From a virus: 57,256 nucleotides of DNA. The notes beneath the pieces were generated by a model. It did no database searches and was not told where the DNA came from. It saw nothing but the letters and a program-made list of their open reading frames with translations. This document shows positions 12,799-57,256 of the stretch, piece after piece. The position numbers were made by a program, and so were the translations under genes. How positions within the stretch are numbered: position 1 is the first letter of the stretch; each line of letters starts with the position of its first letter. The stretch lies in the IMG/VR virus record IMGVR_UViG_3300025294_000007, positions 1 through 57,256 of that record. The stretch is one strand, 5' to 3'.

Positions 12799-14511
12799 TT
12801 ATAACCACGCTGGTTTTTCTTGTAATTGTATTTTCTTTGTACCCTGCGCCAACTGAAACGCCATTGCGAGGGCATCCGGTCCATCATCATGTCTAGCGTT
12901 TGGGTAAACTTCCAGTTGTTCGATTAATAAACGATGCTTCTTGCTGAATCGGATTTTCCCATTCTGTATGTCAGGCAACAGCGCTTCAATACGTAAAGAC
13001 TTTCGCATACGTTGCTTAACCTCTTTGACACGAGTGATTCCTGGGTAGCCGTAGCGTTGTAGTTCGTCTTTTACTTTATGTGCGAACCATTCTTGCGCCA
13101 TCTGCGCCTCGACTGCTATTCCTACGTATTGGTACTGTAGCGCTTTTTTTACGACTGTATTTAGTAGTATATCCGGATGAACACGTTCGATAAATGTATC
13201 GACTACGTAGCAAGTACCTGTTTCGCGGTTTCTAGCGAGTGTTACAATAGCGGAGTAGTCACCTTTTTCTTTCCCCATCGCAAAATCCACCGCTGCGTAA
13301 TAATCGACTTTCATCCCATCTAATTCAGAGTCGTAGAAGTACGTAAATTCCTCCGGTTTAAAAATCTGCGAATCGGGATCAGTAGGATTTCCAAGATACT
13401 CTTGGTTGAACGCTCTCCCACCCATTGATTCACGTTTTTCCATAAAGTATTTATATGAGTACATCTGTGGCCATAACGTTTTAGTTCCGCGTAGCATCTC
13501 TTTTTCATTTTCCACGTAAAAAGCGTTGGCTTTTTCGTTGGAAGCTACATCGTCGCTATTATAAATCTCACGCCACTGATCCCATAAATCTTCGCGCTCT
13601 GTCCACGCTAAAATCGCAGGAAACTTACGGCTAATAAAGTCTTTTCGTTGTGTGATGACGTGATTAAGTAAGGAGTCTGGACCTAAAATCGTACCCATGT
13701 AAATACAGATACCACCGAACCCTAACGCCTCCATCATTTCTGACCGGAACCAGTGTAAGTTTTTCGTACGAAGTTCAGGCGTATTTGTATTTGCGTTACT
13801 TTCAAGGTCATCTAGCAAGAAAAGTCCTGGGCGATTACTAAGGTGGCGGAGTCCCCTCATTTGCGTACCCATACCCTTCGCCTCGACCTTTGTACCACTA
13901 GTCGTAATAAATTCTAACTTGTTATCTACCTCGTTAGCTTGCGATTTTTGGTATAATAGTTCGCCAAAATCAGCACGTAGGCGTTCGTTAAATTTTAGAT
14001 TCTGCGCAGTAAACTTTATGAAATCTGCTGCTACGTCAGTAGTCTCGGAAACTTCGATTATATATTTTTGTTTACGATACACAACTTGATGGCATAAGAA
14101 CGCGTTAGATAGGTACGCAGTCTTTGCATGGCGTCGTCCTACCGACCATGCTACGTTTGATTCCGACTTTCCTTTTGCTATATCGTCTAATAGCCCACAT
14201 AACTCACGGTGGAAATCAGCCGCATCTGAGAAGTGCTGTCCTTTCGGAATTAGATTTACTTCATTATCTGGATTAACTTCGTCTGAAAAGTATTCGTATA
14301 CGAAATATAATAAGTCACTTTCGCATCGATGGATACGTTCTAGTCGTTCCAGCTCCGTTAATCTTTCGTGGTAATCATCGATAAGACCAGCGCTAATAAT
14401 GTCGTCAATATCGGCATACTTTGTGTCTATAGTTTCGATGTATTCGCGATACACTGCGATTAGTGCTTCACGTTTATTTCTTTCGAGCCATTCTCCGTCT
14501 ACCCACGCCAT
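12799..14511 (-). CDS. Terminase large subunit, 570 aa (start moved to ATG 14511 behind GGGAGG)
   Basis: Walker-A-like VGRRHAKT, then an acidic LLDDLE motif and a nuclease-like C-terminal half. The ORF-track start at 14640 lacks an SD. Confidence 0.85.
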   Translation of the reverse strand: MAWVDGEWLERNKREALIAVYREYIETIDTKYADIDDIISAGLIDDYHERLTELERLERIHRCESDLLYFVYEYFSDEVNPDNEVNLIPKGQHFSDAADFHRELCGLLDDIAKGKSESNVAWSVGRRHAKTAYLSNAFLCHQVVYRKQKYIIEVSETTDVAADFIKFTAQNLKFNERLRADFGELLYQKSQANEVDNKLEFITTSGTKVEAKGMGTQMRGLRHLSNRPGLFLLDDLESNANTNTPELRTKNLHWFRSEMMEALGFGGICIYMGTILGPDSLLNHVITQRKDFISRKFPAILAWTEREDLWDQWREIYNSDDVASNEKANAFYVENEKEMLRGTKTLWPQMYSYKYFMEKRESMGGRAFNQEYLGNPTDPDSQIFKPEEFTYFYDSELDGMKVDYYAAVDFAMGKEKGDYSAIVTLARNRETGTCYVVDTFIERVHPDILLNTVVKKALQYQYVGIAVEAQMAQEWFAHKVKDELQRYGYPGITRVKEVKQRMRKSLRIEALLPDIQNGKIRFSKKHRLLIEQLEVYPNARHDDGPDALAMAFQLAQGTKKIQLQEKPAWL

Positions 14512-15154
14512 ATTAGCGCCTCCCTTCGTATTTAACCTCTTATTACGTCGATTTAGCGTTTCTTCGTCGTTCTTTATAAAGTATTGTCTCATTGCGTAAA
14601 ACAGCGTACAGGCTATGCTAGATAGGGGAAATGTTGTCACGTCACGTTACCTTTCCGCAAGGTCAAAGCGAAATTTTGGTACGCCGATTTATTTGCTACC
14701 AGAAAAGCCGACTCAGAAATAGGTGGCTTGGGGGATTTTCTTTTTATTTAACGTTATTTCAACGCATTGAATATCGATTGAATAAATATTCGTTTTCAGC
14801 TTCCTATAACCTTAATTATGTAAACTTGATTAATCTTCAAGCCTTAGTATATCAACGTTCTTTAAGTACGCGTAAAATAAGCGTATGCAGTTTCTTATAC
14901 ATACGCCTTAAACTCGCTATTTACGTACACTTACGTTTAGTAATCGAACAAATATTTCATCAGCACTTGCATAAATTACTGTATATTGTTATGCCTTTTA
15001 TTTCGCCCATTTACACTTTATACGCCAAAGTGTTCTAGGTGTACGCCCATTTCCGCCCTCTGCCCGACAAACCTACGTCAAATGGGAAGTTTAGTGCGGT
15101 ACATTTACGTAATAATATGGAGTTTCTTCCTATATAAACACTGTGAAGGATTCG

Positions 15155-15535: not shown

Positions 15536-15586
15536 CCTTTCTTTTTATTTTTACGTCATTTTAACGTTATTTTTTACAAATATTCG

Positions 15587-15615
15587 TTGACGTTATATTT
15601 AATTCATAGTATAAT
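15587..15615 (+). promoter_or_regulatory. Sigma-A consensus promoter of cassette A (TTGACG-17-TATAAT)
   Basis: -35 at 15587..15592 and -10 at 15610..15615. The leader AGTATAGAAAAGGAGGTGAA is nearly identical to the cassette B leader. Confidence 0.75.
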
Positions 15616-15642
15616 AAGAGTATAGAAAAGGAGGTGAACAAA

Positions 15643-15801
15643 GTGGATTACGAAACTATACTAAAACACACAGCTACAATTGTTGGTATCTTAGGTGGAC
15701 TTTCTTCATTTGCTCTCAACATACAGCAACTAAAGAATAACAAGCGTAAGAAGAACAACAAAAAGCGACGTCAGCCGACCAAGCCTAAACGTCGCAAGTA
15801 G
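15643..15801 (+). CDS. Small TM + poly-Lys/Arg peptide, 52 aa, Hol-Tox/TxpA-like (below the ORF-track cutoff)
   Basis: GTG start 7 nt after AAAGGAGGTG. Sequence: VDYETILKHTATIVGILGGLSSFALNIQQLKNNKRKKNNKKRRQPTKPKRRK. Confidence 0.6.
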   Translation: MDYETILKHTATIVGILGGLSSFALNIQQLKNNKRKKNNKKRRQPTKPKRRK

Positions 15802-15832
15802 TGATATGAAGGAGGTGAAAACCTCCTTTATA
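15757..15832 (-). ncRNA. Predicted ~75-nt antisense RNA to the 3' end of the 52-aa peptide gene
   Basis: Minus-strand promoter TTGCAT-17-TAGAAT (15867..15839). Then a hairpin with a GAAA loop on the plus strand (15809..15828), and the stem GCGACGT/ACGTCGC (15795..15763) followed by U5. Confidence 0.4.
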
Positions 15833-15861
15833 CTTAGTATTCTATCGTAACCACTAACGAA

Positions 15862-16059
15862 ATGCAAACGACGCTCAAACGAATATTTAACATTACTATC
15901 ATCATAGCACTTACCATTTTAATACCACGGACAACGGACTTTAATAATCTAACGACGTCAGACTATGTTTTCTTAGCACTGTACGTCTTAATTGTGATTC
16001 TTTTCATAGTTAACACCATACTAGAAGTAATTAATAAACGAGGTGATAACAATGACTAA
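15862..16059 (+). CDS. Two-TM small membrane protein, 65 aa
   Basis: Two hydrophobic helices. No obvious SD. Confidence 0.45.
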   Translation: MQTTLKRIFNITIIIALTILIPRTTDFNNLTTSDYVFLALYVLIVILFIVNTILEVINKRGDNND

Positions 16060-16252
16060 AAAATCACCTGACGCAGATAGTCCGTTATTTAAAATAATGG
16101 ATACCGCAGAAGCATCCGAATTATGGGGACTGACTCAACAGCATATTAAATTGCTATGTACGAAAGGAGAAGTCATTTGCCGTAAGATTGGTCGAGTATG
16201 GTTGCTTGAAAAAGACCAACCAAATCCGAGAAAGTATGAATCTCATATATAA
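16052..16252 (+). CDS. Small HTH DNA-binding protein (excisionase/MerR-like fold), 66 aa
   Basis: ATG 16052 follows GAGGTGA. HTH: AEASELWGLTQQHIKLLCTKGEVICRKIGRVWLL. Confidence 0.6.
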   Translation: MTKKSPDADSPLFKIMDTAEASELWGLTQQHIKLLCTKGEVICRKIGRVWLLEKDQPNPRKYESHI

Positions 16253-16267
16253 GTTCGACTGATTATT

Positions 16268-16301
16268 GACACCTTAATATTATTGTTAGGGTGTCTTTTT
16301 T
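16268..16301 (+). terminator. Intrinsic terminator of cassette A
   Basis: GACACC-15 nt-GGTGTC followed by T6. Confidence 0.7.
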
Positions 16302-16336
16302 ACTTTAGTTTCACCACTAATTACACCACTAATAGC

Positions 16337-16552
16337 GCACAGTAAATATTACTGTGCGGTGTATTTCTTTATCGTATTCTTTAAAGGAATTACGATAAAA
16401 TATATTATTATTGATAGCTACGATTATTTGCGTTAGCAAATGAGCGTAAATGTAATTATTTATAGTAAATATTTATAGTAAATATTTATACGCAGTAAAA
16501 ACTACTGTACCTTACAGTAAATTCTACTGTGTCGTACAGTAAAAACTACTGT
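16337..16552. repeat. Array of four 17-bp palindromes ACAGTA-N5-TACTGT plus tandem TATTTATAGTAAA repeats (candidate origin or operator array)
   Basis: Sites at 16339..16355, 16492..16508, 16514..16530 and 16536..16552. The last three are spaced 22 bp apart. Tandem 14-nt repeats lie at 16458..16490. The region is an AT-rich convergent intergenic gap. Confidence 0.8.
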
Positions 16553-16562
16553 ATGCTATCTG

Positions 16563-17036
16563 TCATAACCATTCTGAAACAGCGTCTCCATCACTTTTTG
16601 CTACTGTCTGAGCCTCTTGATACGCTTCTTTATCGACTGACTTTCGTCTAGCTACTTTATCAGCCGTTTCTTGTTTCGCTTCCCACATCTCTTTTGCTTC
16701 TGGAAACTTAACGAAAAACTCTTTCACATCTTCTATCGGTTCGTGTACATAATACACATTGTTGTGAAACGTCGCTCCTTTATGTTTACAGACTGTCACT
16801 AAACCGCAAGCGACAAGCGTCTTTACCGCATTATTAAAGGTTTTATCGCTAATCCCTAAATCTCGCATAACTTGCGTATTAGTCGGAAATGCATATCCAT
16901 AATCAGAGTTATTTAATTTTGTAAGATACCCGTAAACTTGTATTGAAGTACCGTTATACTTTGGATAAAAGTTATAGTGGGTAAATATCGCGTTAGAAAT
17001 CTGTACGAATCCACGTTTTGTTTGATTTATCGTCAT
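16563..17036 (-). CDS. wHTH replication-initiator/DnaD-N-like protein, 157 aa
   Basis: Pattern GFVQISNAIF...YGYAFPTNTQVMRDLGISDKTFNNAVKTLVACGLV. It is adjacent to the iteron array. Confidence 0.5.
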   Translation of the reverse strand: MTINQTKRGFVQISNAIFTHYNFYPKYNGTSIQVYGYLTKLNNSDYGYAFPTNTQVMRDLGISDKTFNNAVKTLVACGLVTVCKHKGATFHNNVYYVHEPIEDVKEFFVKFPEAKEMWEAKQETADKVARRKSVDKEAYQEAQTVAKSDGDAVSEWL

Positions 17037-17060
17037 TCTACTTAACCTCCTAGCACCGCC

Positions 17061-17246
17061 TTACTTAGCGGGCTTATTCTCCGCATATGACATAAGAGCA
17101 GTACTTAGTTCTGGCGTGCGTTCATACTGCCAAAACTGACGCATAGTGGATTCGTTAAGTCCTGTACAAATGTAACGGAATCCTAACGCTTTCAAGTGAC
17201 GATATAAATTCGGTGAGTATGCATAATAAAAACTATTGTTTGTCAT
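17061..17246 (-). CDS. Small conserved phage protein, 61 aa (start at ATG 17246 behind GGGAGG)
   Basis: SD-supported start. MTNNSFYYAYSPNLYRHLKALGFRYI resembles small Firmicute phage proteins. Confidence 0.5.
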   Translation of the reverse strand: MTNNSFYYAYSPNLYRHLKALGFRYICTGLNESTMRQFWQYERTPELSTALMSYAENKPAK

Positions 17247-17439
17247 ATGCAATCGCCTCCCTAGCGCTAATTCCATTTACAAAGACATCAACATCGGCAA
17301 ATAATTCAATATTTCCGTTAACCTCTATATGTGCCAATAAATACCCTTCACGGTCTGTTATCGCAAAAATCACATCATTTTTGTTAATTAAGTCCTGTTT
17401 CGGAATGTACTTGATTCGTTTCATTCTACTTATCCCCAT
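17233..17439 (-). CDS. Hypothetical protein, 68 aa or less
   Basis: ORF with coding-like composition. The start is uncertain (17439 or 17424). Confidence 0.4.
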   Translation of the reverse strand: MGISRMKRIKYIPKQDLINKNDVIFAITDREGYLLAHIEVNGNIELFADVDVFVNGISAREAIAYDKQ

Positions 17440-17615
17440 TTCGTTAATTTAAAACATCTCAATTGCGGAACATACCCGTCACATGTGTTTACCGAGCGAA
17501 TAAAATAACCGAGCCTTTCACATCTTGTATTAGCGTGAGTTTGCTCGGCTTGTATCTTCCTATAATGTAAAGGTACAAAACGTTATAAAATATGGATTAT
17601 TTCTCTGATATAAAT

Positions 17616-17644
17616 AAAAAAAGCCACACCTTAATAGATGTGAC
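17616..17644 (-). terminator. Intrinsic terminator of cassette B
   Basis: Minus-strand RNA stem GUCACA/UGUGGC (one G.U pair, which would be a C.A mismatch on the plus strand) followed by U7. Confidence 0.6.
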
Positions 17645-17785
17645 TTCTTTGGCTATTTTGAAAGTTTATATAAGGCATATTAGTTAATCGAAACGCCTTC
17701 TTCCTCTGCCTGCTCTGATAGATATTATGCAAACTTTTCGGCAAGCGAACTACAAACTTTCCATAATGCCAAATTTGGGCGAGAC

Positions 17786-18019
17786 TTAATTGTTAGCTTT
17801 CTTATCCATGTCATTTTTACGCTTAACAATATCTTCTTTAAAGAACAGCCTATCTCTAGGTAAATCTTTAATTGGTATTATCACACCACGTTGCACTAAG
17901 TTATTCAGATTTTGACGTGAGCATTGCAGTATCTCCAACGCTTCAGTTGTATTAATTATTTCATCTTGTATATATTCCGTTAATTCTTCACGTGAGTTGA
18001 AAGAGTAGTTTTCAGTCAT
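17786..18019 (-). CDS. Small HTH DNA-binding protein (excisionase/MerR-like fold), 77 aa
   Basis: HTH: TTEALEILQCSRQNLNNLVQRGVIIPIK. It occupies the same position in cassette B as 16052..16252 does in cassette A. Confidence 0.6.
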   Translation of the reverse strand: MTENYSFNSREELTEYIQDEIINTTEALEILQCSRQNLNNLVQRGVIIPIKDLPRDRLFFKEDIVKRKNDMDKKANN

Positions 18020-18119: not shown

Positions 18120-18191
18120 ACTATAAACACCTCTACTTATTATTAAATTATATTCATTGTATAACATTCTAAATTCGTTTATATTATAGGT

Positions 18192-18266
18192 GAAGGCTAA
18201 GGGTGCGAGCCTTAACCTTCTTTTACTAGCTTGACGCTACTCCTCTGGAGTGGTGTCTTTTTTTTT
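18192..18266 (+). ncRNA. Predicted ~75-nt antisense RNA overlapping the 3' end of the 44-aa peptide gene
   Basis: Promoter TTGTAT-17-TATATT (18157..18185). 5' hairpin AAGGCT/AGCCTT (18193..18213). An 11-bp terminator stem at 18233..18257 has two G.U pairs that form only on the plus-strand RNA, and is followed by U9. Confidence 0.5.
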
Positions 18267-18371
18267 GTTTTCTTTACTTTTCTTGCTGTTCATCTTCGCT
18301 GTTTGGAAATTAATCATTGCGATTATCAAGTTGATGAACGCTGTTAGTGCAACTACTCTTTCAATGTCCAT
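18237..18371 (-). CDS. Small TM + Lys-rich peptide, 44 aa, paralogue of 15643..15801 (Hol-Tox/TxpA-like)
   Basis: ATG 6 nt after GGAGGTG. Sequence: MDIERVVALTAFINLIIAMINFQTAKMNSKKSKENKKKDTTPEE. It aligns without gaps to the cassette A peptide. Confidence 0.6.
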   Translation of the reverse strand: MDIERVVALTAFINLIIAMINFQTAKMNSKKSKENKKKDTTPEE

Positions 18372-18397
18372 TTCTTTCACCTCCTTTCTATACTTTT

Positions 18398-18426
18398 ATT
18401 ATAACATTTATATTTACTCACGTCAA
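18398..18426 (-). promoter_or_regulatory. Sigma-A consensus promoter of cassette B (TTGACG-17-TATAAT)
   Basis: -35 is the reverse complement of 18421..18426, and -10 is the reverse complement of 18398..18403. Confidence 0.75.
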
Positions 18427-18469
18427 TATAAATATGCAATTATTTTATATAAAAGGGTATTTTTAGAAT

Positions 18470-37783: not shown

Positions 37784-37870
37784 TTTTCTTCGCTCCTTAA
37801 AAGAATAAAGGGTAATTATTACACTACCCCCTATTTATTTTGCGTTAAATCAGGGTTTAAAAAGCGTTTT

Positions 37871-40366
37871 TTAATCAAATACACCTGATATTAAATAAAT
37901 CTTATTATCAATGTTTGCATTTAGTCTTTTCATTTGGACTTTTAAAATAATACTTTCTTTAGCTTCCTTTGTTTCATAGTAAAATTCATCTTCTACAATT
38001 CCTTGTCTAACAGTTTCAGTACCTGTTGGTGTAAGAGCTACAAACTCCTCTTGTTCATTCTTTGATGTCATAGATAACTCTGCATTAAGAATAAGGTTTT
38101 CATCACGTTGAATCCAAAATAATACTCCTTTAGCTATTCCTTTGGGTGGCTCAATTTTATAGCGTGCAACAGACTCTAAAACAGGTGTATTAATCTCATT
38201 CTTATTTAGCGTAACTTTCTTCTTCGTTTTTGCTCCGTAATTGTCAATGACTTCAATCAGTATTTGATTTTCGCCAACTCGTAAATGTTCCAACAAGACT
38301 TCAAATTTCCATTCTCCGCCTGTACCACTATAAATCTCAACTGCTTTAGCGCTGTTAATTTGGTAATTTACTGTAACTGTTGAATTTGCATCTTGATCAT
38401 AGGCAGTACCACTAATTGTGAATTTATCAGTATCAATGGATCCACTAGGTACAACAGTATCTACAGACAATAACGGAGCTCGGTTAGGTACAACATAGAA
38501 TGATTTTTCAACGACTGATGACGATACGTTTTCGCTGTCTACAGCCCACACTTTTAATTTGTGCGCTACACCATCAGCTAGATTACCTGTAATAGCTATA
38601 TCACCATCGTAAAGTTTTCCGGCTTTGAATTTAAGCTGTTTTGATAATGATATTTGCGTTTGACTGACATTTGTCGCTAAAACTTTTCGTGAATCGCTGT
38701 TGATCTGATAATACACTGTAACTGATTGGTCTTTATCTTGATCATAGGCATCTCCGTTAATATTCATTACATCATTTTCGTATAGTGTCTGCTTGTCCGT
38801 TGGAGATACAACAGCAATAGACGGCGCACTATTCTGTGTATATGTCCCTGTATATTCGATACTAGTATTAGTTAATTGATAAACCAAAGCCGGAATTGTA
38901 CCGAAATTACCACTATAAGAGTTATCTTGTAAAACTGATGGTAACGTTGCTTCACCGCTAGTTCTGCTTGTCACTGCCGGCACATTATACCACGCACCGT
39001 TAATAACGTAACGCGCTATAATATTGTTGACTGTAGTTGATATTGATGGGTTTATTCCTGCGTATACAACAGCTACTTTACCGGAACTATCGACTGAAAG
39101 GGATGGGTTAAACCAACTGTAGTCATAACCTGTTACACCTTCAGGAGTTCTCCAAGTAGCGCCCCCATCTAATGACTTACAGTAAACTATACTGTACTTA
39201 CTACCTTCCCCCTTACTTTGCCACGCTACATGAATATTGCCGTTTTTGTCGATGACTGCCGACGGATTAAGTTGTTGAAAACTGCCTCCGCTATAGATTT
39301 TGCTTTCTTGCCATGAACCATTTTCGTATCTCTTAGCTATTATGTTGTAAATAGAACCATCGTACTGCTGATAAATGATAACAGGAACGGTGTCTTTTCT
39401 ACCCACTATCGTAGGTGTTGAGTTGTGTGTACTGGAAACATTAAAGCTTGTTGCATTAACAACAGGTTCCCAGGAAACACCGCCGTTAGTACTCCTAGCA
39501 TAACGAATATTCCATGCATTTGGGTATGTTGATGTTACGCACGACCACGCCGCGTGCAAAAATCCGGACGTCGGATCAAATGCTAAAGACATAGTTGCTA
39601 CTGATGTTGGTGAATCAAGTGTTGTCTCAGCGGCGAACGAAAAAATACTACCATTTCTCACTAATTTTCTAAAACGAATAGAGTTACCATACGAGTACAT
39701 AAACCCAACCTCATTAGCATTTATAACCGTTATAACTACATCTGTAGTATCTACACCAGCTAAACCAAGTTGAGTAGCATACGTCCATGATGATCCTTCG
39801 TTTTGCGATATATATACTTTAATATAATCGACGTTTCTAATGACCGTCATTAATGTTCCGTCTGATACTCTGACTAACTTACGCCCCCCGTTGCCGTTTA
39901 CGCTATACGGTTGATTAATAACTTGTCCAGGAAGTACTGGTCCAACTGCTGCACCTTTAACATACCAATAGCCATCGCTCTGTCGTCCGTTTGCCGGGTA
40001 TGTTCCTTCTTCTACAGCGATATTACTTTGTACTAACGAACCTTTGGAGTACGATGTATTAGTACCTGTTTGAACATACGTTGATTTACCTGTTGTTTTT
40101 TTGACTTTTGAACCTAGGGTAGCTGTAGATCGATATACGTCTCTGCCTCCACCACTATATAGAGTACCGGTTGGGCCATTTACTGAATCATAATTTACAT
40201 AAGAACCTGACAATTGAACGTAACCTTCACTATCTAAGTAATATGAAGTGTTTCCCGCATATGTTCCATCATACGCTTCTTGTTCAGCCCCCCATACAAC
40301 CTGCCAATTATAAATTGGTGTCTCGTCTTTTATTGATGTAAACTTGTCATAATAATATAAAGCCAT
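37871..40366 (-). CDS. Tail fibre / receptor-binding protein paralogue with a BNR (Asp-box) beta-propeller, 831 aa
   Basis: Asp-boxes SLDGGATW, STNGGVSW and SQNEGSSW. The N-terminus MALYYYDKFTSIK and the C-terminal 320 aa or so are shared with 40448..43078 and 49948..51945. Confidence 0.7.
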   Translation of the reverse strand: MALYYYDKFTSIKDETPIYNWQVVWGAEQEAYDGTYAGNTSYYLDSEGYVQLSGSYVNYDSVNGPTGTLYSGGGRDVYRSTATLGSKVKKTTGKSTYVQTGTNTSYSKGSLVQSNIAVEEGTYPANGRQSDGYWYVKGAAVGPVLPGQVINQPYSVNGNGGRKLVRVSDGTLMTVIRNVDYIKVYISQNEGSSWTYATQLGLAGVDTTDVVITVINANEVGFMYSYGNSIRFRKLVRNGSIFSFAAETTLDSPTSVATMSLAFDPTSGFLHAAWSCVTSTYPNAWNIRYARSTNGGVSWEPVVNATSFNVSSTHNSTPTIVGRKDTVPVIIYQQYDGSIYNIIAKRYENGSWQESKIYSGGSFQQLNPSAVIDKNGNIHVAWQSKGEGSKYSIVYCKSLDGGATWRTPEGVTGYDYSWFNPSLSVDSSGKVAVVYAGINPSISTTVNNIIARYVINGAWYNVPAVTSRTSGEATLPSVLQDNSYSGNFGTIPALVYQLTNTSIEYTGTYTQNSAPSIAVVSPTDKQTLYENDVMNINGDAYDQDKDQSVTVYYQINSDSRKVLATNVSQTQISLSKQLKFKAGKLYDGDIAITGNLADGVAHKLKVWAVDSENVSSSVVEKSFYVVPNRAPLLSVDTVVPSGSIDTDKFTISGTAYDQDANSTVTVNYQINSAKAVEIYSGTGGEWKFEVLLEHLRVGENQILIEVIDNYGAKTKKKVTLNKNEINTPVLESVARYKIEPPKGIAKGVLFWIQRDENLILNAELSMTSKNEQEEFVALTPTGTETVRQGIVEDEFYYETKEAKESIILKVQMKRLNANIDNKIYLISGVFD

Positions 40367-40447
40367 CCTTATACTACCTCCCCTAATTCAACATTTAATA
40401 TTTTGATGTGTATTGTATTATTAATTTCTATGCTGCTCCTTCTTTTA

Positions 40448-43078
40448 TTAATCTATTACACCTGATATTAAATGAATCTTATTATTAACAGTCTCATCTG
40501 GTCTTGTCATTTGGATTTTTAAAATAATATTTTCTTTAGCTTCACCGGTCTCATAGTAGAATTCGTCTTCCACTATACCTTGTTTAAGCGCCACTGTATT
40601 TATTGAGGTAAGTTCTACAAACTCCTCTGGTTCACTCTGTTCTGTCATGGATATTTCTGTATTCATAGTAAGCTTTTCATCACGTTGAATCCAGAATAGG
40701 ACACCTTTAGCAGTTCCCTGTGGCGGTTCAATTTTATAGCGAGCAACTGATTTTAAGACAGGCTTATTATTCTCAGTTTTTCTGAGTTTAATAGTTTTAC
40801 TAGTTTTAGCACCGTAGTTGTCAACAATTTCAACTACAATCGTATTTTCACCAACCAAAAGTTGCGTTAGAAAAACGTCAAATCTCCACGATCCACCTGT
40901 ACCATTGTAAATTTCGACTGCATTACCTGCATTGATTCTATAGGCTACCTTTACGGAGGAATTCGCATCTTGATCCGATGCAGTTCCACTTATTTTAAAT
41001 TTATCAGTGTTGATTGTTCCGCTTGGTATGACTTCATCAATTGTTAGTAGAGGTGCTCTGTTAGGTACGACATAAAATGATCGTTCGACGATTGTAGAAG
41101 AAGCTTTTTCACTGTCCTCTGCCCACACTTTCAATGCATGAGCTACACCTTCAGCGAGAGTTCCTGTAATGGCCGATTCGCCATCGTAAAGTTTGCCAGC
41201 TTTAAATTTAAGTTGCTTAGATAACATTATTTGCGTTTGACTAATATTTGTTGTTAAGACCTTCTTGGAGTCGCTATTGATTTGATAATAAGATGTAACT
41301 GACTGATCTTTGTCAGCGTCGTATGCATCGCCTGAAATATTGAACGTGTCATTTTCGTAAAGCGTTTGATTGTCGCTAGGCGATAAAACGGCGATTGACG
41401 GTGGGTTATTTTTGACGATGGCACCCGCCAACAATACCCCTTTATCCGATGTTTCATGAATGTAAGGAGGTGGCGAACCTGTATTTCTACCAAACGAAAG
41501 ACGGAATTCTGGGTCGTGTAGTAACTGAGGGTATTGGCTGTCCGTATTTACTAGCGTTGATGATTCCCATGATAACCCCCTGTCTTTGGACATAAAGGCG
41601 TAAACATTACTAGTTGCTGGACTAAAACCCATAGCCCATAGATTGCCGTTTGTTTTATCGTAAGTTATCGTGGCACTTGTACATTTGTTATCATTTAAAA
41701 AATTTCCTGTAGGTTCTTGCCATGCAGTACCGCTATCAGACCACAGTGTCGTTAATTGCGCAACACCATTAGTAGTCGTCGTTTTTAGATAAATCAAGTG
41801 AAAACGGTCATTACTATCCATAATTAGTTTAGGCGCTGTAGCTAGTTGTACGCTAGCAGACACCGGGTACGCATTATTAAATGTTGCGCTATTGTTTGTA
41901 CTGTATAGGATGCCAATGGAGAACACACTACCTTGTACAATGCTATAGGCTATCCAGATTTTGTTTCCTTTTGCCACAATAGATGGCGCGTAATTGTCCT
42001 TATTTAACTCTGTAGAGTTTGTAAGCATCTTGGCATTAGTCCACGCGTTTCCTTGAGCGGCAACACAATTCATGTATCTAATATTATAATTTGATGGGTA
42101 GATACTAGTTCTCACACTAAACGCTAAGTGTAGGATGCCTGTTGACTTGTCATAGAACATACTTGCACCAGCGCCGTTTTGTGAAATCGCATCTGTTGCA
42201 AGGATTGCGCCCGTTACCGTCAATGTGTGAGTTTCTAAGTTATACAAGTAATACAATAACTGAGCGTCTTTTTGTACTATCCATGCCACGCTATTACCTA
42301 CGGCGCATATGGTAGTGTCTTTCACACCTCCAATACCTAGCATGTACCCTTGTTCCCATGTTACGCCGTTATCTTTTGATACGAATAACGCTGTATTAGT
42401 ATCTTTTATATACGGCGCAGCAACTAGCCACCCATTGTCAAGGTATACAAATTTTGCATTCGCAGTAGGTCGTAATAATGACGTAATAATAGGTGTTACC
42501 GTCCCTGGTGGCGTCGGTCCCACGGCTCCCTTTTTAACGTACCAGTAGCCGTCAGTATGGCGCCCATCTGCTGGGTACGTGCCATCTTCTGCTGCTATGT
42601 TCGCCTGTACGAGTGCGCCTTTTGAGTAGGTTGTCTTGATAACAACAGGCGTTAATTTATAAATAGTTACCGTGTAGAAGTGCCCTGGGTTCTGCTCCTC
42701 GTAATCAGCGAACATATTAACCTTATATGTTCCGGCTCCGGGACCTGTAAATTGCATATAACAATATCTATGACCGTATGAACCGTAGTTAGTAGTGAAC
42801 TCGTATAAAGTTTTAAACACCGTTTCTTTAAGGTCACGATTTACAATAGGTTTCTCCATTCCAATCTTACCTGTTTTATCAATGGAAATACCATTATACG
42901 CAGTAGTCGGGTTTATTACAGTACCAGCGCCCAAATTATCAGGAATTAGTGGATTAAGCATTTGTACTACATCGACATTACTTATTGCTATTCTGGTTCC
43001 TGGAATAGCTACACTCTCGTAATAGTCGTATGTCTCATTTTTAATCGATGTAAACTTGTCATAATAATACTGTGCCAT
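40448..43078 (-). CDS. Tail fibre / receptor-binding protein paralogue with a BNR (Asp-box) beta-propeller, 876 aa
   Basis: Asp-boxes SKDNGVTW, SKDRGLSW and SDSGTAW. N-terminus MAQYYYDKFTSIK. Shares the C-terminal module. Confidence 0.7.
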   Translation of the reverse strand: MAQYYYDKFTSIKNETYDYYESVAIPGTRIAISNVDVVQMLNPLIPDNLGAGTVINPTTAYNGISIDKTGKIGMEKPIVNRDLKETVFKTLYEFTTNYGSYGHRYCYMQFTGPGAGTYKVNMFADYEEQNPGHFYTVTIYKLTPVVIKTTYSKGALVQANIAAEDGTYPADGRHTDGYWYVKKGAVGPTPPGTVTPIITSLLRPTANAKFVYLDNGWLVAAPYIKDTNTALFVSKDNGVTWEQGYMLGIGGVKDTTICAVGNSVAWIVQKDAQLLYYLYNLETHTLTVTGAILATDAISQNGAGASMFYDKSTGILHLAFSVRTSIYPSNYNIRYMNCVAAQGNAWTNAKMLTNSTELNKDNYAPSIVAKGNKIWIAYSIVQGSVFSIGILYSTNNSATFNNAYPVSASVQLATAPKLIMDSNDRFHLIYLKTTTTNGVAQLTTLWSDSGTAWQEPTGNFLNDNKCTSATITYDKTNGNLWAMGFSPATSNVYAFMSKDRGLSWESSTLVNTDSQYPQLLHDPEFRLSFGRNTGSPPPYIHETSDKGVLLAGAIVKNNPPSIAVLSPSDNQTLYENDTFNISGDAYDADKDQSVTSYYQINSDSKKVLTTNISQTQIMLSKQLKFKAGKLYDGESAITGTLAEGVAHALKVWAEDSEKASSTIVERSFYVVPNRAPLLTIDEVIPSGTINTDKFKISGTASDQDANSSVKVAYRINAGNAVEIYNGTGGSWRFDVFLTQLLVGENTIVVEIVDNYGAKTSKTIKLRKTENNKPVLKSVARYKIEPPQGTAKGVLFWIQRDEKLTMNTEISMTEQSEPEEFVELTSINTVALKQGIVEDEFYYETGEAKENIILKIQMTRPDETVNNKIHLISGVID

Positions 43079-43080
43079 TT

Positions 43081-43293
43081 TTAAACCACCTCTACTAATT
43101 CAACATTAAATGTTTGCCAATCACCGACAATTAGATCATTATCATATGGCAAACCCATAAATTTAGAATCGTCTGTATAGCGTTGTACTAACGAACAGCT
43201 TTCACATTTAAAAACATAATCGCCATCTTGTATTGAAAAACTGAATACGTGGTTACAACATGTTTGCTGGTTAAGTAATTGATTACGTTTCAT
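43081..43293 (-). CDS. Chimeric 70-aa protein: Cys-rich N-terminus plus the last 14 aa of the fibre-adaptor protein
   Basis: CCNH...CESC, then ..GDWQTFNVELVEVV. Compare ..GDWQTYSVDLVEVV at the C-terminus of 52051..52629. Confidence 0.5.
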   Translation of the reverse strand: MKRNQLLNQQTCCNHVFSFSIQDGDYVFKCESCSLVQRYTDDSKFMGLPYDNDLIVGDWQTFNVELVEVV

Positions 43294-43502: not shown

Positions 43503-43805
43503 TCATCTTTTATCGAGTAAATAATAGACGTTTGTTGTCTGTTTCCCTTGCCCAAAAACTCGTTTTTCTCTCCGAATATAGCCTACAGATTCTAGAGATT
43601 TTAACGCCCTAAATACACTATTACGACCAACACCAACTATTTCAGCAAGTTTCTGTGCGCTTGGGTATGCTTGTTTACTATTGTTGTCCGTAAATAGACT
43701 AAGCGCTATGTATACCATTTTATCTCGATGTGTTAACGATTTATCGAGTGCTAGTGATTGTGGTATCATAACGAATTTAGTTGTCTGATAATCGATTATT
43801 TGCAT
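43503..43805 (-). CDS. Winged-HTH DNA-binding protein (Rep-N / DnaD-like family), 100 aa
   Basis: FVMIPQSLALDKSLTHRDKMVYIALSLF...AYPSAQKLAEIVGVGRNSVFRALKSLESVGYI. Confidence 0.55.
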   Translation of the reverse strand: MQIIDYQTTKFVMIPQSLALDKSLTHRDKMVYIALSLFTDNNSKQAYPSAQKLAEIVGVGRNSVFRALKSLESVGYIRREKRVFGQGKQTTNVYYLLDKR

Positions 43806-44746: not shown

Positions 44747-45541
44747 TTATCCTAAGAAACCATAATAATCATAACGAAGTTGTCTATTATAAATACCGCG
44801 AGTTGTCTTTTTTATTGCACTGTAAAGAACCGCAGGTAGTGACTTCACTTTTCCACGCTTAAATGCATTTATTACGCTCAAAATAGTTTCACGGAATGTA
44901 TCTTCGTGGTCCTCAATCTGAATATCACGATCAACAGATGCTTTTGCTTTATAAATTACACCAACCATTTCATACAATTCCTCTGCATCAAAGAAAGGAG
45001 CTAATACGTATTTTAATGTTTCTGGTAATTTACTTACTAGCCCATTTTTAATGAGCGCAGCGTTTTCTCCTGTATCATATGTATTATTTAAATCTTTTTT
45101 AGGAGTTTGATTAAGAGTATTAGTATGACACTCGGTATGACATTGCATATTATCCGACACGACTTCAATTACTTGTCCGAATGCTTCTCGCGCTGAAATT
45201 TGTGTTAAGAAAACAATCGCATTTGACGATTGGCGTTTATCACCGTTAGCACGATCCAATTGATATTGAGCGATAATTCCCATTGATCCTAACGTGTTGC
45301 AAATACGTACTACCTGGCGAGTACTTAATCCGACCATTTTTGCGATAGATGACTTCGCCAAATAACATACTCCGTAAAATTTAGATGCATAGCGATGTAA
45401 AACGTCTAGTACGTTAAGCATTGATGTCGTCATAAATTCTCCGAATTGCAGGCGGATTGCTTTTGTATTAGCGTTCAGTTGTTCGATAGATTCAAAAGGT
45501 TGTAACATTCTATAAGTTTTTTCTGTGTTTAACAGTTTCAT
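44747..45541 (-). CDS. Plasmid Rep-like winged-HTH protein, 264 aa
   Basis: Central wHTH SIAKMVGLSTRQVVRICNTLGSMGII. It is divergent from parMR and has a long structured leader. Confidence 0.45.
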   Translation of the reverse strand: MKLLNTEKTYRMLQPFESIEQLNANTKAIRLQFGEFMTTSMLNVLDVLHRYASKFYGVCYLAKSSIAKMVGLSTRQVVRICNTLGSMGIIAQYQLDRANGDKRQSSNAIVFLTQISAREAFGQVIEVVSDNMQCHTECHTNTLNQTPKKDLNNTYDTGENAALIKNGLVSKLPETLKYVLAPFFDAEELYEMVGVIYKAKASVDRDIQIEDHEDTFRETILSVINAFKRGKVKSLPAVLYSAIKKTTRGIYNRQLRYDYYGFLG

Positions 45542-45568: not shown

Positions 45569-45614
45569 AAAAAAGCGTTACATCGCATAAATACTAGCGA
45601 CATAACGCTTTTTT
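45569..45614 (-). terminator. Terminator/attenuator hairpin in the leader of the Rep-like gene
   Basis: A6-GCGTTA...TAACGC-T6 with an inner TCGC/GCGA stem, about 20 nt upstream of the SD ATAGGAGG. Confidence 0.55.
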
Positions 45615-45616
45615 CG

Positions 45617-45645
45617 TTGACGAAACCGAATAAACAAGATATAAT
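45617..45645 (+). promoter_or_regulatory. Perfect sigma-A consensus promoter TTGACG-17-TATAAT pointing away from the Rep-like gene
   Basis: -35 at 45617..45622 and -10 at 45640..45645. The palindrome AAGATAT-N7-ATATCTT (45637..45657) overlaps the -10. Confidence 0.7.
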
Positions 45646-45651
45646 TAGCAT

Positions 45652-45757
45652 ATCTTATATATAACGATTAAGTCGGCAAGTGTTAGTCGCGAGTCTGGTT
45701 CGCGGTTGACGGTTATAAAGTGTTGGTAGCACTTTATAACAGCCGGCTTTTTCTTTT
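45652..45757 (+). ncRNA. Predicted ~105-nt non-coding RNA (candidate countertranscript to the Rep leader)
   Basis: It starts after the consensus promoter and has no SD or ORF. It contains the hairpin CGCGA/TCGCG and an 11-bp perfect stem GTTATAAAGTG/CACTTTATAAC (45712..45740), followed by AGCCGGC and T5CT5. Confidence 0.5.
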
Positions 45758-45834
45758 TCCGTGCGTTTATTTGTTACCACAACTTTACACTGTAAAAAAC
45801 GGAAATGCAAGAACAAACTTCATCTATTCCCTAC

Positions 45835-45869: not shown

Positions 45870-45881
45870 AAAATCATTAGA

Positions 45882-45966
45882 AATACGGTAAATCATACGT
45901 AATGAATTACGGTAATGAATATAGAAAGTATTGCATTACGGTAAATTCGTGATATAATTACGGTAT
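45882..45966. repeat. parC-like centromere iterons (A)TTACGGTA(A), four copies
   Basis: Copies at 45882..45891, 45906..45915, 45935..45944 and 45957..45966. They overlap the parM promoter. Confidence 0.65.
45931..45958 (+). promoter_or_regulatory. parMR promoter TTGCAT-16-TGaTATAAT
   Basis: -35 at 45931..45936 and extended -10 at 45950..45958. Iterons are interleaved with it. Confidence 0.65.
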
Positions 45967-45988: not shown

Positions 45989-47065
45989 ATGCAATTGTTT
46001 GCGTTAGATTTAGGAAACCGTCAAGTAAAATTAATGAGTGAAAAAGCTACAAAAGTCCTACCTAGTTACTTTGTAAATGCTGCAGAATACGGGAAGCGTG
46101 ACGTGCTTGCGTTAGGTAAAAAAGAAAAGGAACAGACAACTAGCGATTATGTAACAGGTCGTGACGCAGATTTTACTTACGTTTGGGGAACGGGATTAGA
46201 TATTAACCGCAAACGTGTTACGGATACATTGGACTTCAATAGACGATATGATACGTTAGAATTTAAGGTGTTAGCAGATTTAGCACTTACTGAATTAGCG
46301 CGTGACTTTAAAGAATCTACAAAGAGCGCTATTGACGTGGCAGTTGTAACTGGTGTACCTACAGACGATTACGATAATGACGAGACAATTAAGCACATTA
46401 GAAACGCTTTAATCGGCGTACATAGCGCCTCGATTGACGGGGTAGATCATTATGTTCATGTACGTTCTGTAGACGTTCTTATGCAGCCAGTAGGCACAGC
46501 TATAGACGCAATGGTTGACGCACTTGGCAATATTAAAGAAGATAACGATATTGAGGACGGATATATTGGAGTAGTCGATGTCGGAGGTGGTACGGTTATC
46601 ATCAACGCTTTCGATAAGATGAATCTTGATACAAAGCACCGTGTACAAATGGAGGACGGATCATATTCATTATTCACAGAGATCCGCAATCGAATCATTG
46701 ATAAAGGCTACAAAATTTCTGAACACGAAGTTGAGCAAATTGTCCGTGATGGTAACGATAAGGAAGTATATACGTGGTCGCCAAACGGTCGTGAAACGCT
46801 TGATTTTACAGATATGGTTATGAAAGAGCGTAAATTATACACTCGTAACATTGCTCAATCTGTGAAATCAACGTTTAAAGCGATGTCTAGTATGCGTAAA
46901 ATATACGTAACTGGAGGTACTGCAAATCTTCTTATTAAAGATGAATTTACACGAGTAGTCAAAATTGCACATTTTGTAAACGACAGTGAAACGGCAAACG
47001 TGCGCGGGTATTATAAATACGGATTAATAAATGAGGTGACTGCTGTTGACGAAGCTACGAATTGA
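45989..47065 (+). CDS. Actin-like segregation ATPase (ParM/Alp family), 358 aa
   Basis: Phosphate-1 ALDLGNRQVK, phosphate-2 VVDVGGGTVII and adenosine motif YVTGGTANL. Confidence 0.8.
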   Translation: MQLFALDLGNRQVKLMSEKATKVLPSYFVNAAEYGKRDVLALGKKEKEQTTSDYVTGRDADFTYVWGTGLDINRKRVTDTLDFNRRYDTLEFKVLADLALTELARDFKESTKSAIDVAVVTGVPTDDYDNDETIKHIRNALIGVHSASIDGVDHYVHVRSVDVLMQPVGTAIDAMVDALGNIKEDNDIEDGYIGVVDVGGGTVIINAFDKMNLDTKHRVQMEDGSYSLFTEIRNRIIDKGYKISEHEVEQIVRDGNDKEVYTWSPNGRETLDFTDMVMKERKLYTRNIAQSVKSTFKAMSSMRKIYVTGGTANLLIKDEFTRVVKIAHFVNDSETANVRGYYKYGLINEVTAVDEATN

Positions 47066-48323: not shown

Positions 48324-49004
48324 TTATCTTTGCGAAATGATGATTTTCAATCCTTCGAAATCTCCGCCTGTCATAGTGCCAGTCTCGAATTTGTCGAGCC
48401 ACGCTTTATCAATTTTCTTACTATCGACAGCTTGCTGCAGTAAATCGCGTACTGCCGTTTTCGTTTCTTTAATCGTAAATTGCATTATATCGTCATCCTT
48501 TCCAGTTGCATCATTTTTATCGTTTATTGCGTACTCAATCCGTTTCAAGAAGCTATTCCAACGGCACTCATCTAAAATACGATGTGGGCAGTACTTACCG
48601 TTCCAGTCTCGGTGCTTCTTTACTCGCTCAATGCCCCATCCGTATTTCTTTAGTAGGCTGGCGATATATTGAACGGCATTTTCTTCCGCAGCTACGTAAC
48701 GAGCGCCCCCACTTTTGCTGTAGCAGATTTCAATGCCGATTGATTTACGATTGCCATTACCTTGACCATCTCCGCAATGCCAGGCGTTACGATTGAATGG
48801 AATGGCTTGAATAGCCTCCTTATCGTCAATGGCAACATGGTAGGATACTAGATTGTTGTTAGTTATCATGTATCTAGTTTCGTTTTCAGCTGATGCGTCG
48901 TTCGCCGTATTGTGCACCGTGATATATTGAGGCGTCATTGCGTAAGGCGACTTAATCGCATATTTAACTGACGCTAATAAGTTTTGTTTGAATACGTAGC
49001 TCAT
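48324..49004 (-). CDS. Endolysin: N-acetylmuramoyl-L-alanine amidase (PGRP/Amidase_2) with a PlyL/PlyG-type C-terminal domain, 226 aa
   Basis: ITVHNTAN..., YHVAIDD, WHCGDG and KKHRDWNGKYCPHRIL. Confidence 0.85.
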   Translation of the reverse strand: MSYVFKQNLLASVKYAIKSPYAMTPQYITVHNTANDASAENETRYMITNNNLVSYHVAIDDKEAIQAIPFNRNAWHCGDGQGNGNRKSIGIEICYSKSGGARYVAAEENAVQYIASLLKKYGWGIERVKKHRDWNGKYCPHRILDECRWNSFLKRIEYAINDKNDATGKDDDIMQFTIKETKTAVRDLLQQAVDSKKIDKAWLDKFETGTMTGGDFEGLKIIISQR

Positions 49005-49324
49005 TTCGCCTCACCTGGCTTATTATACGACATAGCACGCTGGCTATCGCTAATTCCCTTCGTAGTTGGGTCAATCAATGCGTTATAAACCGATACCCCA
49101 ATGAGCGATAGCACATACGGATTACTAAACGCATTAGCTAAGAGTTGCCATACGCTTCCCCACGTTGTTAAATCTGCGCCTGTGATTCCGTAGTAAGCGA
49201 ATAGTGGAGCAAGTATGGCTAGTGTCACCGTAATCCAAAACTGCGGATTCTTCGCCCGTACTTTCAAATTTAATTGCGTCATAATTACGTCATCTCCTTC
49301 TGTTTTAGTGTGATAATAGTGCAA
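49001..49324 (-). CDS. Holin (phi LC3 / holin 4-1 family); the start may be ATG 49282
   Basis: NPQFWITVTLAILAPLFAYYGI...YVLSLIGVSVYNALIDPTTKG. Located between xhlA and the endolysin gene. Confidence 0.7.
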   Translation of the reverse strand: MHYYHTKTEGDDVIMTQLNLKVRAKNPQFWITVTLAILAPLFAYYGITGADLTTWGSVWQLLANAFSNPYVLSLIGVSVYNALIDPTTKGISDSQRAMSYNKPGEAK

Positions 49325-49737: not shown

Positions 49738-49948
49738 TTTTTGCGCCTCCTAATATTTGTAGTAACAATTCCGCTTGTAACGATTCTATCGCATCTAAAC
49801 GAATATCTTTTTCTATTAAAGAAAGCGTTAGAGACGCGTTTTCCTCCTCTAATCGCTCTACTCTTTCGCTAGATGTTTCGCCTTGACCGATTTTTTCTAC
49901 TGCGCCCAATGATCCGTCTGATAGGCGTGGTCTACGTTCAATAGCCAT
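49730..49948 (-). CDS. Small coiled-coil tail-fibre-associated protein (XkdW position), 72 aa
   Basis: Gene order only. Confidence 0.45.
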   Translation of the reverse strand: MAIERRPRLSDGSLGAVEKIGQGETSSERVERLEEENASLTLSLIEKDIRLDAIESLQAELLLQILGGAKNE

Positions 49949-57123: not shown

Positions 57124-57256
57124 CTTGAACTCTCTCCTTTTCAATTAATTTCGCTAGACTAAACGCAATCTTCTCGATGTCTGCTTCTTCGCGAACAGTG
57201 AATGAGTTGCCGGTAACTAAGACTCCACCGCCGGTCCCGCCGCCGTTGCCTTCAGA
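57116..57256 (-). CDS. 3' end of the tape measure gene (mostly the duplicated overlap copy)
   Basis: Same frame as 1..2212 after joining 57129 to base 1. Stop TAA at 57118..57116 overlaps the TTG (57123..57121) of the next gene. Confidence 0.8.
   Translation of the reverse strand, partial: SEGNGGGTGGGVLVTGNSFTVREEADIEKIAFSLAKLIEKERVQVG
57130..57256. repeat. Second copy of the 127-nt terminal overlap
   Basis: Identical to 1..127. Confidence 0.95.

Follow-up and report, generated by a model that had tools for sequence, protein, structure and literature searches.

A candidate type I toxin-antitoxin locus built like yonT/yoyJ/SR6 in a plasmid-like phage, and its relatives in Bacillaceae

In the Bacillus subtilis prophage SPbeta, the yonT/yoyJ/SR6 locus (Rfam RF02892; YonT/as-YonT family of T1TAdb) produces SR6, an antitoxin RNA of 100 nucleotides (nt). 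SR6 drives the decay of the yonT mRNA by RNase III (PMC5848175) and was shown experimentally to act as an antitoxin via this enzyme (PMC5848175, PMC3531473). Expression of yonT is lethal in B. subtilis RNase III mutants, and yonT together with txpA is the reason why RNase III is essential in this species (PMC3531473). YonT has a Lys/Arg tail and a very strong Shine-Dalgarno sequence, one of the two strongest in the B. subtilis genome (PMC3531473). The yonT transcripts are polycistronic, SR6 is far more stable than the toxin mRNA, and homologues have been reported in few Bacillus species only (PMC5848175). Here we analysed a locus in a viral DNA of 57,256 nt (IMG/VR record IMGVR_UViG_3300025294_000007, positions 1 to 57,256; this whole stretch is called the window), where a 52-amino-acid (aa) peptide gene faces a predicted antisense RNA gene. 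We read it as a type I toxin-antitoxin-like module built like yonT/yoyJ/SR6, a reading to which we give, on sequence evidence, a probability of about 65%.

Two other prophage-borne systems, txpA/RatA of the skin element and bsrG/SR4 of SPbeta, also have a convergent antisense RNA, which overlaps the mRNA of a small hydrophobic toxin at its 3' end, and they rely on RNase III-dependent mRNA decay, the mechanism that we infer for the window locus. However, the TxpA and BsrG toxins lack the long Lys/Arg tail of the peptides described here, RatA and SR4 (180-220 nt) are structurally unlike the predicted window RNA, and both systems are without a partner open reading frame (ORF) encoding two transmembrane helices (2-TM). 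The convergent 3'-overlapping layout is a hallmark of Gram-positive type I toxin-antitoxin loci and it is real and conserved in the family of loci found here. The match to txpA/RatA and bsrG/SR4 suggested in the original prediction thus holds for the layout, but does not extend to peptide or RNA sequence. No TxpA or BsrG model matched the window peptide in Pfam or NCBIfam (E <= 10), and the RatA and SR4 families had no Rfam match on the region (E <= 10). Hol-Tox (PF16935) matched neither the window peptide in Pfam at E <= 10 nor 15 family members at E <= 0.01. The suggestion that the peptide is Hol-Tox/TxpA-like, and the profile search proposed along with it, therefore found no support.

A plasmid-borne counterpart is par (Fst/RNA I-RNA II) of the Enterococcus plasmid pAD1, a type I module with a proven role in post-segregational killing, in which convergent toxin mRNA and antitoxin RNA are arranged around a shared hairpin. 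In par the interaction involves 5' direct repeats outside the overlap, and the antitoxin is the less stable RNA. The window locus has no sequence similarity to it.

Anatomy of the window locus and comparison with yonT/SR6

The following features were located in the window:

TTGACG 15587-15592, 17-nt spacer, TATAAT 15610-15615, plus strand: promoter of the peptide mRNA, 11/12 consensus matches
15622..15642, plus strand: short 5' untranslated region (UTR) from the predicted transcription start, Shine-Dalgarno sequence inside
15643..15801, plus strand: 52-aa peptide gene with GTG start, MDYETILKHTATIVGILGGLSSFALNIQQLKNNKRKKNNKKRRQPTKPKRRK
15756..15833, minus strand: predicted antisense RNA of ~78 nt, from a covariance-model match and a two-hairpin fold
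15756..15795, minus strand: putative intrinsic terminator of the antisense RNA, within the codons for KKRRQPTKPKRR
15809-15828, extendable to 15805-15832, both strands: hairpin past the stop codon, AAGGAGGT-GAAA-ACCTCCTT
TTGCAT 15867-15862, 17-nt spacer, TAGAAT 15844-15839, minus strand: candidate antisense RNA promoter
15862..16059, plus strand: 65-aa two-helix membrane ORF, its ATG within the antisense -35, in the position equivalent to yoyJ

On the plus strand, the TTGACG-17-TATAAT promoter, the strong Shine-Dalgarno sequence and the GTG-initiated ORF lie where the original prediction had placed them. The Shine-Dalgarno sequence is 11 nt long (AAAGGAGGTGA, 15627-15637) and is separated from the GTG by a 5-nt spacer. 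As had been proposed, the peptide consists of one hydrophobic helix (residues 11-27, mean Kyte-Doolittle value 1.68) followed by a Lys/Arg tail, with 14 of the last 22 residues being Lys or Arg (YonT: 15/22). The ORF had been described as unannotated; gene callers do call it (JGI P0001, 55 aa, starting at a GTG at 15634 within the Shine-Dalgarno sequence), but it is named only 'hypothetical protein', as is the Lysinibacillus capsici homologue WP_158539204.1. The start at 15643 is supported by homologues, since some of them have an ATG at the equivalent position.

The predicted minus-strand RNA is a full complement of the peptide mRNA 3' end and overlaps the last ~45 nt of the peptide ORF; a transcript of ~75 nt with this overlap had been expected, and the present prediction is ~78 nt. 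Its span matches a covariance model of the family (R1), the seed of which included the window. Folding of an 82-nt stretch of the minus strand gives two hairpins and nothing else (-28 kcal/mol, z = -4.9), and none of 200 shuffles folded as well. The first hairpin, with its GAAA loop, was read at 15809..15828 as expected. On the plus strand it is a weak 3' hairpin/terminator of the peptide mRNA, with a poor U-tail in the window, and on the minus strand it is the antisense 5' stem-loop. The second hairpin is formed inside the ORF by the inverted repeat GCGACGT (15765-15771) and ACGTCGC (15789-15795), preceded by A5 (15760-15764), which is U5 on the minus strand. Repeat and U5 had both been noted before, but the stem starts at 15765 and not at 15763: 15788-15795 pairs with 15765-15772 (8 base pairs (bp), including one G.U), and U5 occupies 15764-15760. 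A simple terminator scan misses this minus-strand terminator because the loop is 15 nt long. The TTGCAT-17-TAGAAT promoter was likewise found in the predicted position, but TTGCAT has only 3/6 matches to the -35 consensus, and a promoter scan scores the site as TTTGCA-18-TAGAAT (9/12).

Judged by its architecture, the closest known system is yonT/yoyJ/SR6 of SPbeta. That locus and the family described below share a strong promoter (with an extended -10 at the yonT locus), a short 5' UTR, an exceptional Shine-Dalgarno sequence of 11-12 nt and a GTG start. The 5' UTRs read AGAGTCATAGGAAAGGAGGTGTACATA-GTG in yonT and AAGAGTATAGAAAAGGAGGTGAACAAA-GTG in the window. In both, a peptide of 52-58 aa carries a single hydrophobic transmembrane helix towards its N-terminus and ends in a strongly basic tail (~65-75% Lys/Arg), and the stop codon is followed by a hairpin with a convergent sigma-A promoter a few nt beyond (in SPbeta TGtTATAAT on the minus strand). 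At the level of sequence and covariation, the family also has the convergent antisense gene overlapping the toxin 3' end. The yonT ORF contains an inverted repeat, GCGTATACGC...CGTATACGC, with AAAAAGAAAAA before it, and the window has an equivalent repeat. SR6 and the predicted window RNA are thus alike in having a 5' hairpin, a terminator stem from the tail-codon inverted repeat and a U-run. In SPbeta, which served as positive control (L020 912-1015, 128 bits), the Rfam SR6 model covers exactly the hairpin, the in-ORF stem and the U-run. In both loci a membrane ORF with two helices comes next, its start lying in the antisense promoter region, an equivalence of position and topology, and both are found in prophages, although the window element differs in being a plasmid-like phage.

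There are also differences. The predicted window RNA is shorter (~78 nt versus 100 nt for SR6) and probably starts downstream of the partner ORF start, whereas SR6 overlaps yoyJ by 30-40 nt, and the window antisense promoter lacks the extended -10 found in SPbeta. YonT was not among the 11 representatives found by HMMER at E <= 1e-3, and YoyJ was not significantly similar to the partner family by BLASTP or hhalign (hhalign probability 5%). We take the window locus to work like yonT/SR6 and to be probably a distant relative, not a proven member.

The hairpin past the stop codon carries a copy of the Shine-Dalgarno sequence (AAGGAGGTGAA at 15809-15819, identical to 15628-15638). The idea that the antisense RNA blocks the toxin ribosome-binding site through this copy was set aside because the motif varies among relatives, whose hairpins are of the GGGGAAG or CGGGGCG type, because the Shine-Dalgarno sequence is mostly unpaired in the mRNA fold and because no such effect was found for SR6 (PMC5848175).

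A family of related loci and selection on the antisense structures

We searched for relatives of the window locus with a word-indexed protein search, which gave 3 close sequences, and with a full HMMER search, which gave 11 cluster representatives (E <= 1e-3). Together with further loci from locus scans and from a DNA pattern scan of viral contigs filtered by the family profile, 38 distinct loci were obtained. They come from five Bacillaceae genera, Lysinibacillus, Bacillus (B. subtilis group, including B. subtilis itself), Virgibacillus, Viridibacillus and Robertmurraya, and sit in prophages and a phage-plasmid. Most relatives are found in chromosomal prophages, some of them at prophage ends beside lysis or cargo genes. 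All members are annotated only as hypothetical proteins.

In all 38 loci, a strong promoter and an 11-nt Shine-Dalgarno sequence precede the start codon, usually GTG, of a peptide with a single helix and a Lys/Arg tail, and just past the stop codon comes a hairpin with a minus-strand promoter 4-17 nt beyond it (nearly always 4-12). They also have the tail-codon inverted repeat followed by a minus-strand U-run, a trait for which only the 14 loci found through the peptide are a test. The sigma-A promoter of the peptide gene is near consensus and at equal distance to the start codon in nearly all loci, and the 5' UTR block (A/G)AGTATAGAAAGGAGGTGAACAAA is kept family-wide. The consensus peptide begins with MDY(E/D)KIL, continues with the hydrophobic helix and NIQxL, and ends in KKRRxPxKKKRRK. 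Across the N-terminal 32 codons, the ratio of nonsynonymous to synonymous substitution rates (dN/dS) was 0.07-0.42, which indicates that the peptide is translated and under selection; dS in the N-terminal half of the gene was 0.8-2.7, near saturation.

We then asked whether the in-ORF stem is under selection of its own. To avoid ascertainment by the stem, the 24 of 38 loci for which it had served as the search pattern were left out of the test, and the remaining 14, all found through the peptide, were kept. Over these 14 loci, 96.4% of the cells of the 8-pair stem were paired, and 4/8 pairs were altered on both sides. The covariation score was 0.316, compared with 0.175 in shuffles, and 0/500 shuffles reached it. 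Pairing was better on the minus strand (108/112 cells) than on the plus strand (93/112), and single transitions consistently left a G.U pair on the minus strand but an A.C mismatch on the plus strand. The minus-strand stems are 6-12 bp long (at least 8 in 12/14 loci), and a U-run follows in all of them. Elsewhere in the family stems reach 15 bp, where Lys codons (CUU on the minus strand) pair with Ser-Pro codons (GGGAGA).

Moreover, the stem arms are almost invariant while N-terminal synonymous sites are near saturation. In two relatives the stem was kept at the expense of the peptide: the stem GCGACC/GGTCGC of L008 changes RR to RP and RR to GR, and the stem GCAACCC/GGGTTGT of L015 goes with a changed tail (KQP...GCK). 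On these data, selection maintains the stem as an RNA structure of the minus strand, which dictates tail codons and, in two relatives, amino acids. Its covariation and its better pairing on the minus strand point to the intrinsic terminator of a leftward antisense RNA, encoded within the codons of the basic tail. The bias of Arg codons had been considered as a further argument for the stem, but it is a weak one, as CGA already makes up 21% of the Arg codons in the window phage.

The hairpin past the stop codon varies widely in sequence (AAGGAGGT, AAGAAGGT, AGAGAGGT, AAGGAGAC, GGGGAAG, CGGGGCG), but always pairs. Compensatory changes were found in 13/18 RNAalifold consensus pairs. A minus-strand sigma-A promoter lies 4-12 nt beyond the hairpin in 37/38 loci scored, including the mapped psr6 of SPbeta, with a mean score of 10.3 compared with 7.8 for the best plus-strand site, and 28/37 family loci have an extended -10, which the window lacks.

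In addition, a two-helix ORF homologous to that of the window lies directly downstream of the peptide gene in 30/37 family loci examined. It has a conserved (D/N)(F/Y/W)-x5-6-D loop motif and is never preceded by a Shine-Dalgarno sequence, and its start, ATG(C/A)AA, is the reverse complement of the antisense -35 (TTGCAT or TTTCAT). The partner ORF is missing in five loci (L002, L006, L010, L011 and L098). As the antisense promoter is kept in all five, it belongs to the peptide module; in L002 the similarity to the window stops right at the antisense -35. The promoter is also kept in loci such as L012, L015, L017 and L019, where the flanking genes are all on the strand of the peptide. With every element conserved in position, the comparative data show that the elements of the locus are under selection and have not arisen by chance.

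By these sequence comparisons, the loci in effect form a new, sizeable family of a known kind that has no name in any database searched. No matching model was found in Pfam, Rfam, NCBIfam or PADLOC, and PHROGs matches were insignificant. Rfam gave no match on the region or on the whole window, and PADLOC none at E <= 0.1 for the peptide, the 65-aa ORF, the neighbouring helix-turn-helix (HTH) protein or the peptide of a second cassette described below. Peptide and partner had only insignificant, composition-driven matches in Pfam, PHROGs, NCBIfam and PADLOC (PIGBOS1, phrog_20, retron Ec48 2TM), and no Pfam family matched the partner ORF significantly. A tblastn search with two family peptides against phages and plasmids gave no match, the tail possibly being masked as low complexity. 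One relative carries the UniRef label 'DUF3948', which was not reproduced by the Pfam scan; the only paper mentioning this label deals with unrelated B. cereus peptides, encoded by genes of ~110 nt.

Until now yonT/SR6 has been treated as an orphan of a few B. subtilis-group genomes (PMC5848175), and the same architecture recurs in this much larger family. The loci appear to offer a clean case of an RNA terminator that lies within, and co-evolves with, the coding sequence of the protein it would help to silence. The covariance model and the peptide profile can now be used to annotate such loci.

Some genomes hold more than one copy. L. capsici PB300 has two, one in a phage context (contig_22, which is syntenic with the window) and one in a non-phage context (L006, contig_29), the viral contig L038 has two copies 1.3 kilobases (kb) apart, and L014 has a second weak match to the RNA model at 1982-2055. 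Type I toxin-antitoxin loci typically occur in several copies.

The window itself contains a second related cassette at 18160-18430 on the minus strand. Its promoter consists of TTGACG (18426-18421), a 17-nt spacer and TATAAT (18403-18398) with a TGt extension, followed by the same 5' UTR (AAAAGTATAGAAAGGAGGTGAAAGAA) and a gene (18371..18237) for a 44-aa peptide, MDIERVVALTAFINLIIAMINFQTAKMNSKKSKENKKKDTTPEE, with a hydrophobic helix and an acidic end. A strong hairpin follows the peptide gene, and then a 28-aa hydrophobic ORF. The 5' profile of the family matches this cassette with E = 1e-8, and the antisense-RNA model matches weakly on the opposite strand (18194-18266, E = 0.1).

Proposed mechanism and alternative readings

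The original prediction of a candidate type I toxin-antitoxin system is supported in silico by the conserved convergent layout and by the selection on the antisense hairpins. Going by the precedents SR6/yonT, RatA/txpA and SR4/bsrG, this RNA would be made constitutively and pair with the 3' end of the peptide mRNA; RNase III would then cut the duplex, the toxin mRNA would be degraded and no peptide would be made. When the antisense RNA runs short, the peptide would enter the membrane and cause arrest or death of the cell. Because the Shine-Dalgarno sequence is largely unpaired in the mRNA fold, mRNA decay is a likelier mode of control than a ribosome-binding site masked by the mRNA itself. Read-through into the 65-aa ORF and the HTH gene beyond it is likely and would end at terminators at 16268-16358, in line with the polycistronic yonT transcripts (PMC5848175). 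The 65-aa membrane protein would be a co-transcribed partner; it might serve as an immunity factor, as a cofactor or, like YoyJ according to one claim, as a second toxin. Since the DNA of its start codon is also the antisense -35, read-through and antisense transcription should interfere.

The element may benefit through maintenance of the phage-plasmid or prophage, or through a switch linked to stress or induction. Post-segregational killing, which had been proposed for the cassette, is possible in a plasmid-like phage. It is not implied, and it is somewhat doubtful, because most relatives are chromosomal and because SR6 outlives its target mRNA (PMC5848175), the opposite of what such killing needs. 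If the peptide is toxic, the loci would matter for prophage and plasmid stability and for strain engineering in Lysinibacillus and Bacillus, and RNase III would be essential wherever they reside.

A more far-reaching version, which we hold to be tentative and on balance doubtful, is that the module is a three-part, doubly dual-coded switch: the tail codons would spell the terminator and the partner start the antisense -35, so that transcription of toxin and antitoxin would be mutually exclusive, bistable and tied to induction or plasmid loss. On the minus strand, Arg-Arg codons pair with Arg-Arg codons and Ser-Pro codons with Lys-Lys codons, and the KKRR-x-P-x-KKKRRK tail might exist largely because its codons must spell the antitoxin terminator. 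If so, the family and yonT/SR6 would be a model for an antisense gene that shapes the protein it controls.

Several points weigh against a yonT/SR6-like toxin-antitoxin module. The window antisense promoter is among the weakest of the family (9/12, without extended -10). It is not significant alone, because sites of this quality are no commoner than in shuffles (13 in 2.5 kb, compared with 9.5 +/- 2.8). The 15-nt loop of the window terminator is broken only by a predicted 4-bp inner helix, and the hydrophobic segment of the peptide is rich in Gly and Ser and only moderately hydrophobic. All six core pairs of the hairpin covary (39 distinct sequences), but in an alignment fitted to the model, and the 24 loci retrieved with the stem are uninformative on stem conservation. 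Direct similarity to SPbeta was also insignificant. Rfam SR6 did not match the window, either at E <= 10 or with the gathering score as threshold, the R1 model found SR6 in the right place with E = 0.44, and the nhmmer profile of the family 5' region found the yonT leader at the right site with E = 0.39. For YonT itself, comparison with the family gave an hhalign probability of 28% over 21 columns and a BLASTP E of 83.

The antisense RNA could be real and the peptide not a toxin. The locus would then encode a small membrane protein under cis-antisense regulation, with the RNA only tuning its level, for example a prophage 'moron' acting with its 65-aa partner in exclusion, signalling or lysis timing. 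The frequent 2-TM partner suggests a two-protein function, and the purifying selection on the peptide, the position of relatives at prophage ends near lysis or cargo genes, and the mild or indirect toxicity of YoyJ and YonT in some assays (PMC2887945, PMC5848175) would all fit. However, the anatomy is shared with yonT, which is lethal when RNase III is missing (PMC3531473), and an extreme Shine-Dalgarno sequence together with a strong promoter and an antisense RNA of its own typically marks a gene that has to be kept silent. The module also persists in the five loci without the partner. We therefore consider a non-toxic peptide unlikely.

Alternatively, there might be no discrete antisense RNA, with the hairpin and the stem plus U-run serving to terminate transcription or to insulate two convergent units from each other. 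Transcripts running leftward from the minus-strand genes at 16563-18019 would then be halted at the stem and kept out of the terminase operon. Those genes do face the cassette, no minus-strand terminator was called between 16563 and 15867, and the antisense promoter of the window is weak. Against this stand the promoter-like site at a near-fixed short distance from the hairpin in 37/38 loci, mostly with an extended -10, and its retention in loci whose flanking genes all run with the peptide. Furthermore, the equivalent site in SPbeta is a mapped promoter that gives a 100-nt RNA (PMC5848175). A locus consisting of terminators only is thus highly improbable.

That the peptide is a late holin, antiholin or lysis accessory with incidental RNA structures is hardly credible: a weak phrog_20 match (E = 0.04, the only one to a holin family), a single helix with a basic tail as in small holins, and some relatives within 1-2 kb of amidase/holin genes would speak for it, but the peptide gene lies outside the canonical lysis cassette of the window (48324-49324), which is 33 kb away, no Pfam holin family matched, Hol-Tox included, relatives beside lysis genes have separate holins of their own, and the covarying minus-strand terminator inside the ORF would be left unexplained.

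Genomic setting and neighbouring features

The window element is a myovirus-type phage of a Bacillaceae host, plasmid-like and with a Lysinibacillus-type host. It is a circular assembly of 57,129 bp, with bases 1-127 recurring at 57130-57256 (127-bp terminal overlap). Its large terminase (12799-14640, minus strand) has 57% identity to that of Bacillus phage phBC6A51, and the whole region is most closely related to a 57,977-bp contig of L. capsici PB300. Near and distant DNA similarity searches against isolate phages and PLSDB plasmids gave no match. A plasmid-type prophage, as had been suggested, is plausible because the assembly is circular, an Alp7A-like actin is encoded and no integrase was found among ~40 window ORFs scanned. 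Further features of the window are:

16052..16252, plus strand: 66-aa HTH_59/excisionase-like gene (Pfam HTH_59 7.6e-8; phrog_2655 7e-10)
16268..16358, plus strand: two terminator-like hairpins that would stop read-through transcripts of the plus-strand block
45989-47065: Alp7A-like partition actin
48324-49004 and 49001-49324: Amidase_2 and Phage_holin_1 of the lysis cassette

The peptide cassette is part of a small plus-strand island (15587-16360), which is flanked by the minus-strand terminase operon on one side and minus-strand early genes on the other. The HTH_59-like gene is the last gene of this block. The trio of peptide gene, partner ORF and HTH_59-like gene recurs in L003 and L019, and the HTH_59-like gene may be part of the module.

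Two tandem paralogous large genes (37871-40366 and 40448-43078, within 37867-43115) are 71-81% identical across repeat segments, shorter segments of which recur in 49948-51945 (including 50206-50853); they are probably tail-fibre or receptor-binding genes. HTH_36 replication-initiator-like genes (44747-45541 and 43503-43805) adjoin the Alp7A-like actin gene. Directly upstream of the first of these, at 45590-45760, a near-consensus promoter (TTGACG-17-TATAAT) points away from the gene, into a non-coding stretch that is GC-rich and hairpin-forming. Rfam gave no match here in the whole-window scan; the transcript could be a replication-control RNA.

Finally, a TTTTACGT(N)ATTTAACG motif is kept between the small-terminase start and the peptide promoter in 3/3 syntenic phages, with sites as follows:

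15540-15586 in the window
2895-2935 in L001
2905-2945 in L002

Similar TACGGTAAAT/TACGTAA repeats occur near 45880-45960 of the window and 3690-3760 of L001. Both kinds of repeat may be bound by a phage regulator or replication protein.

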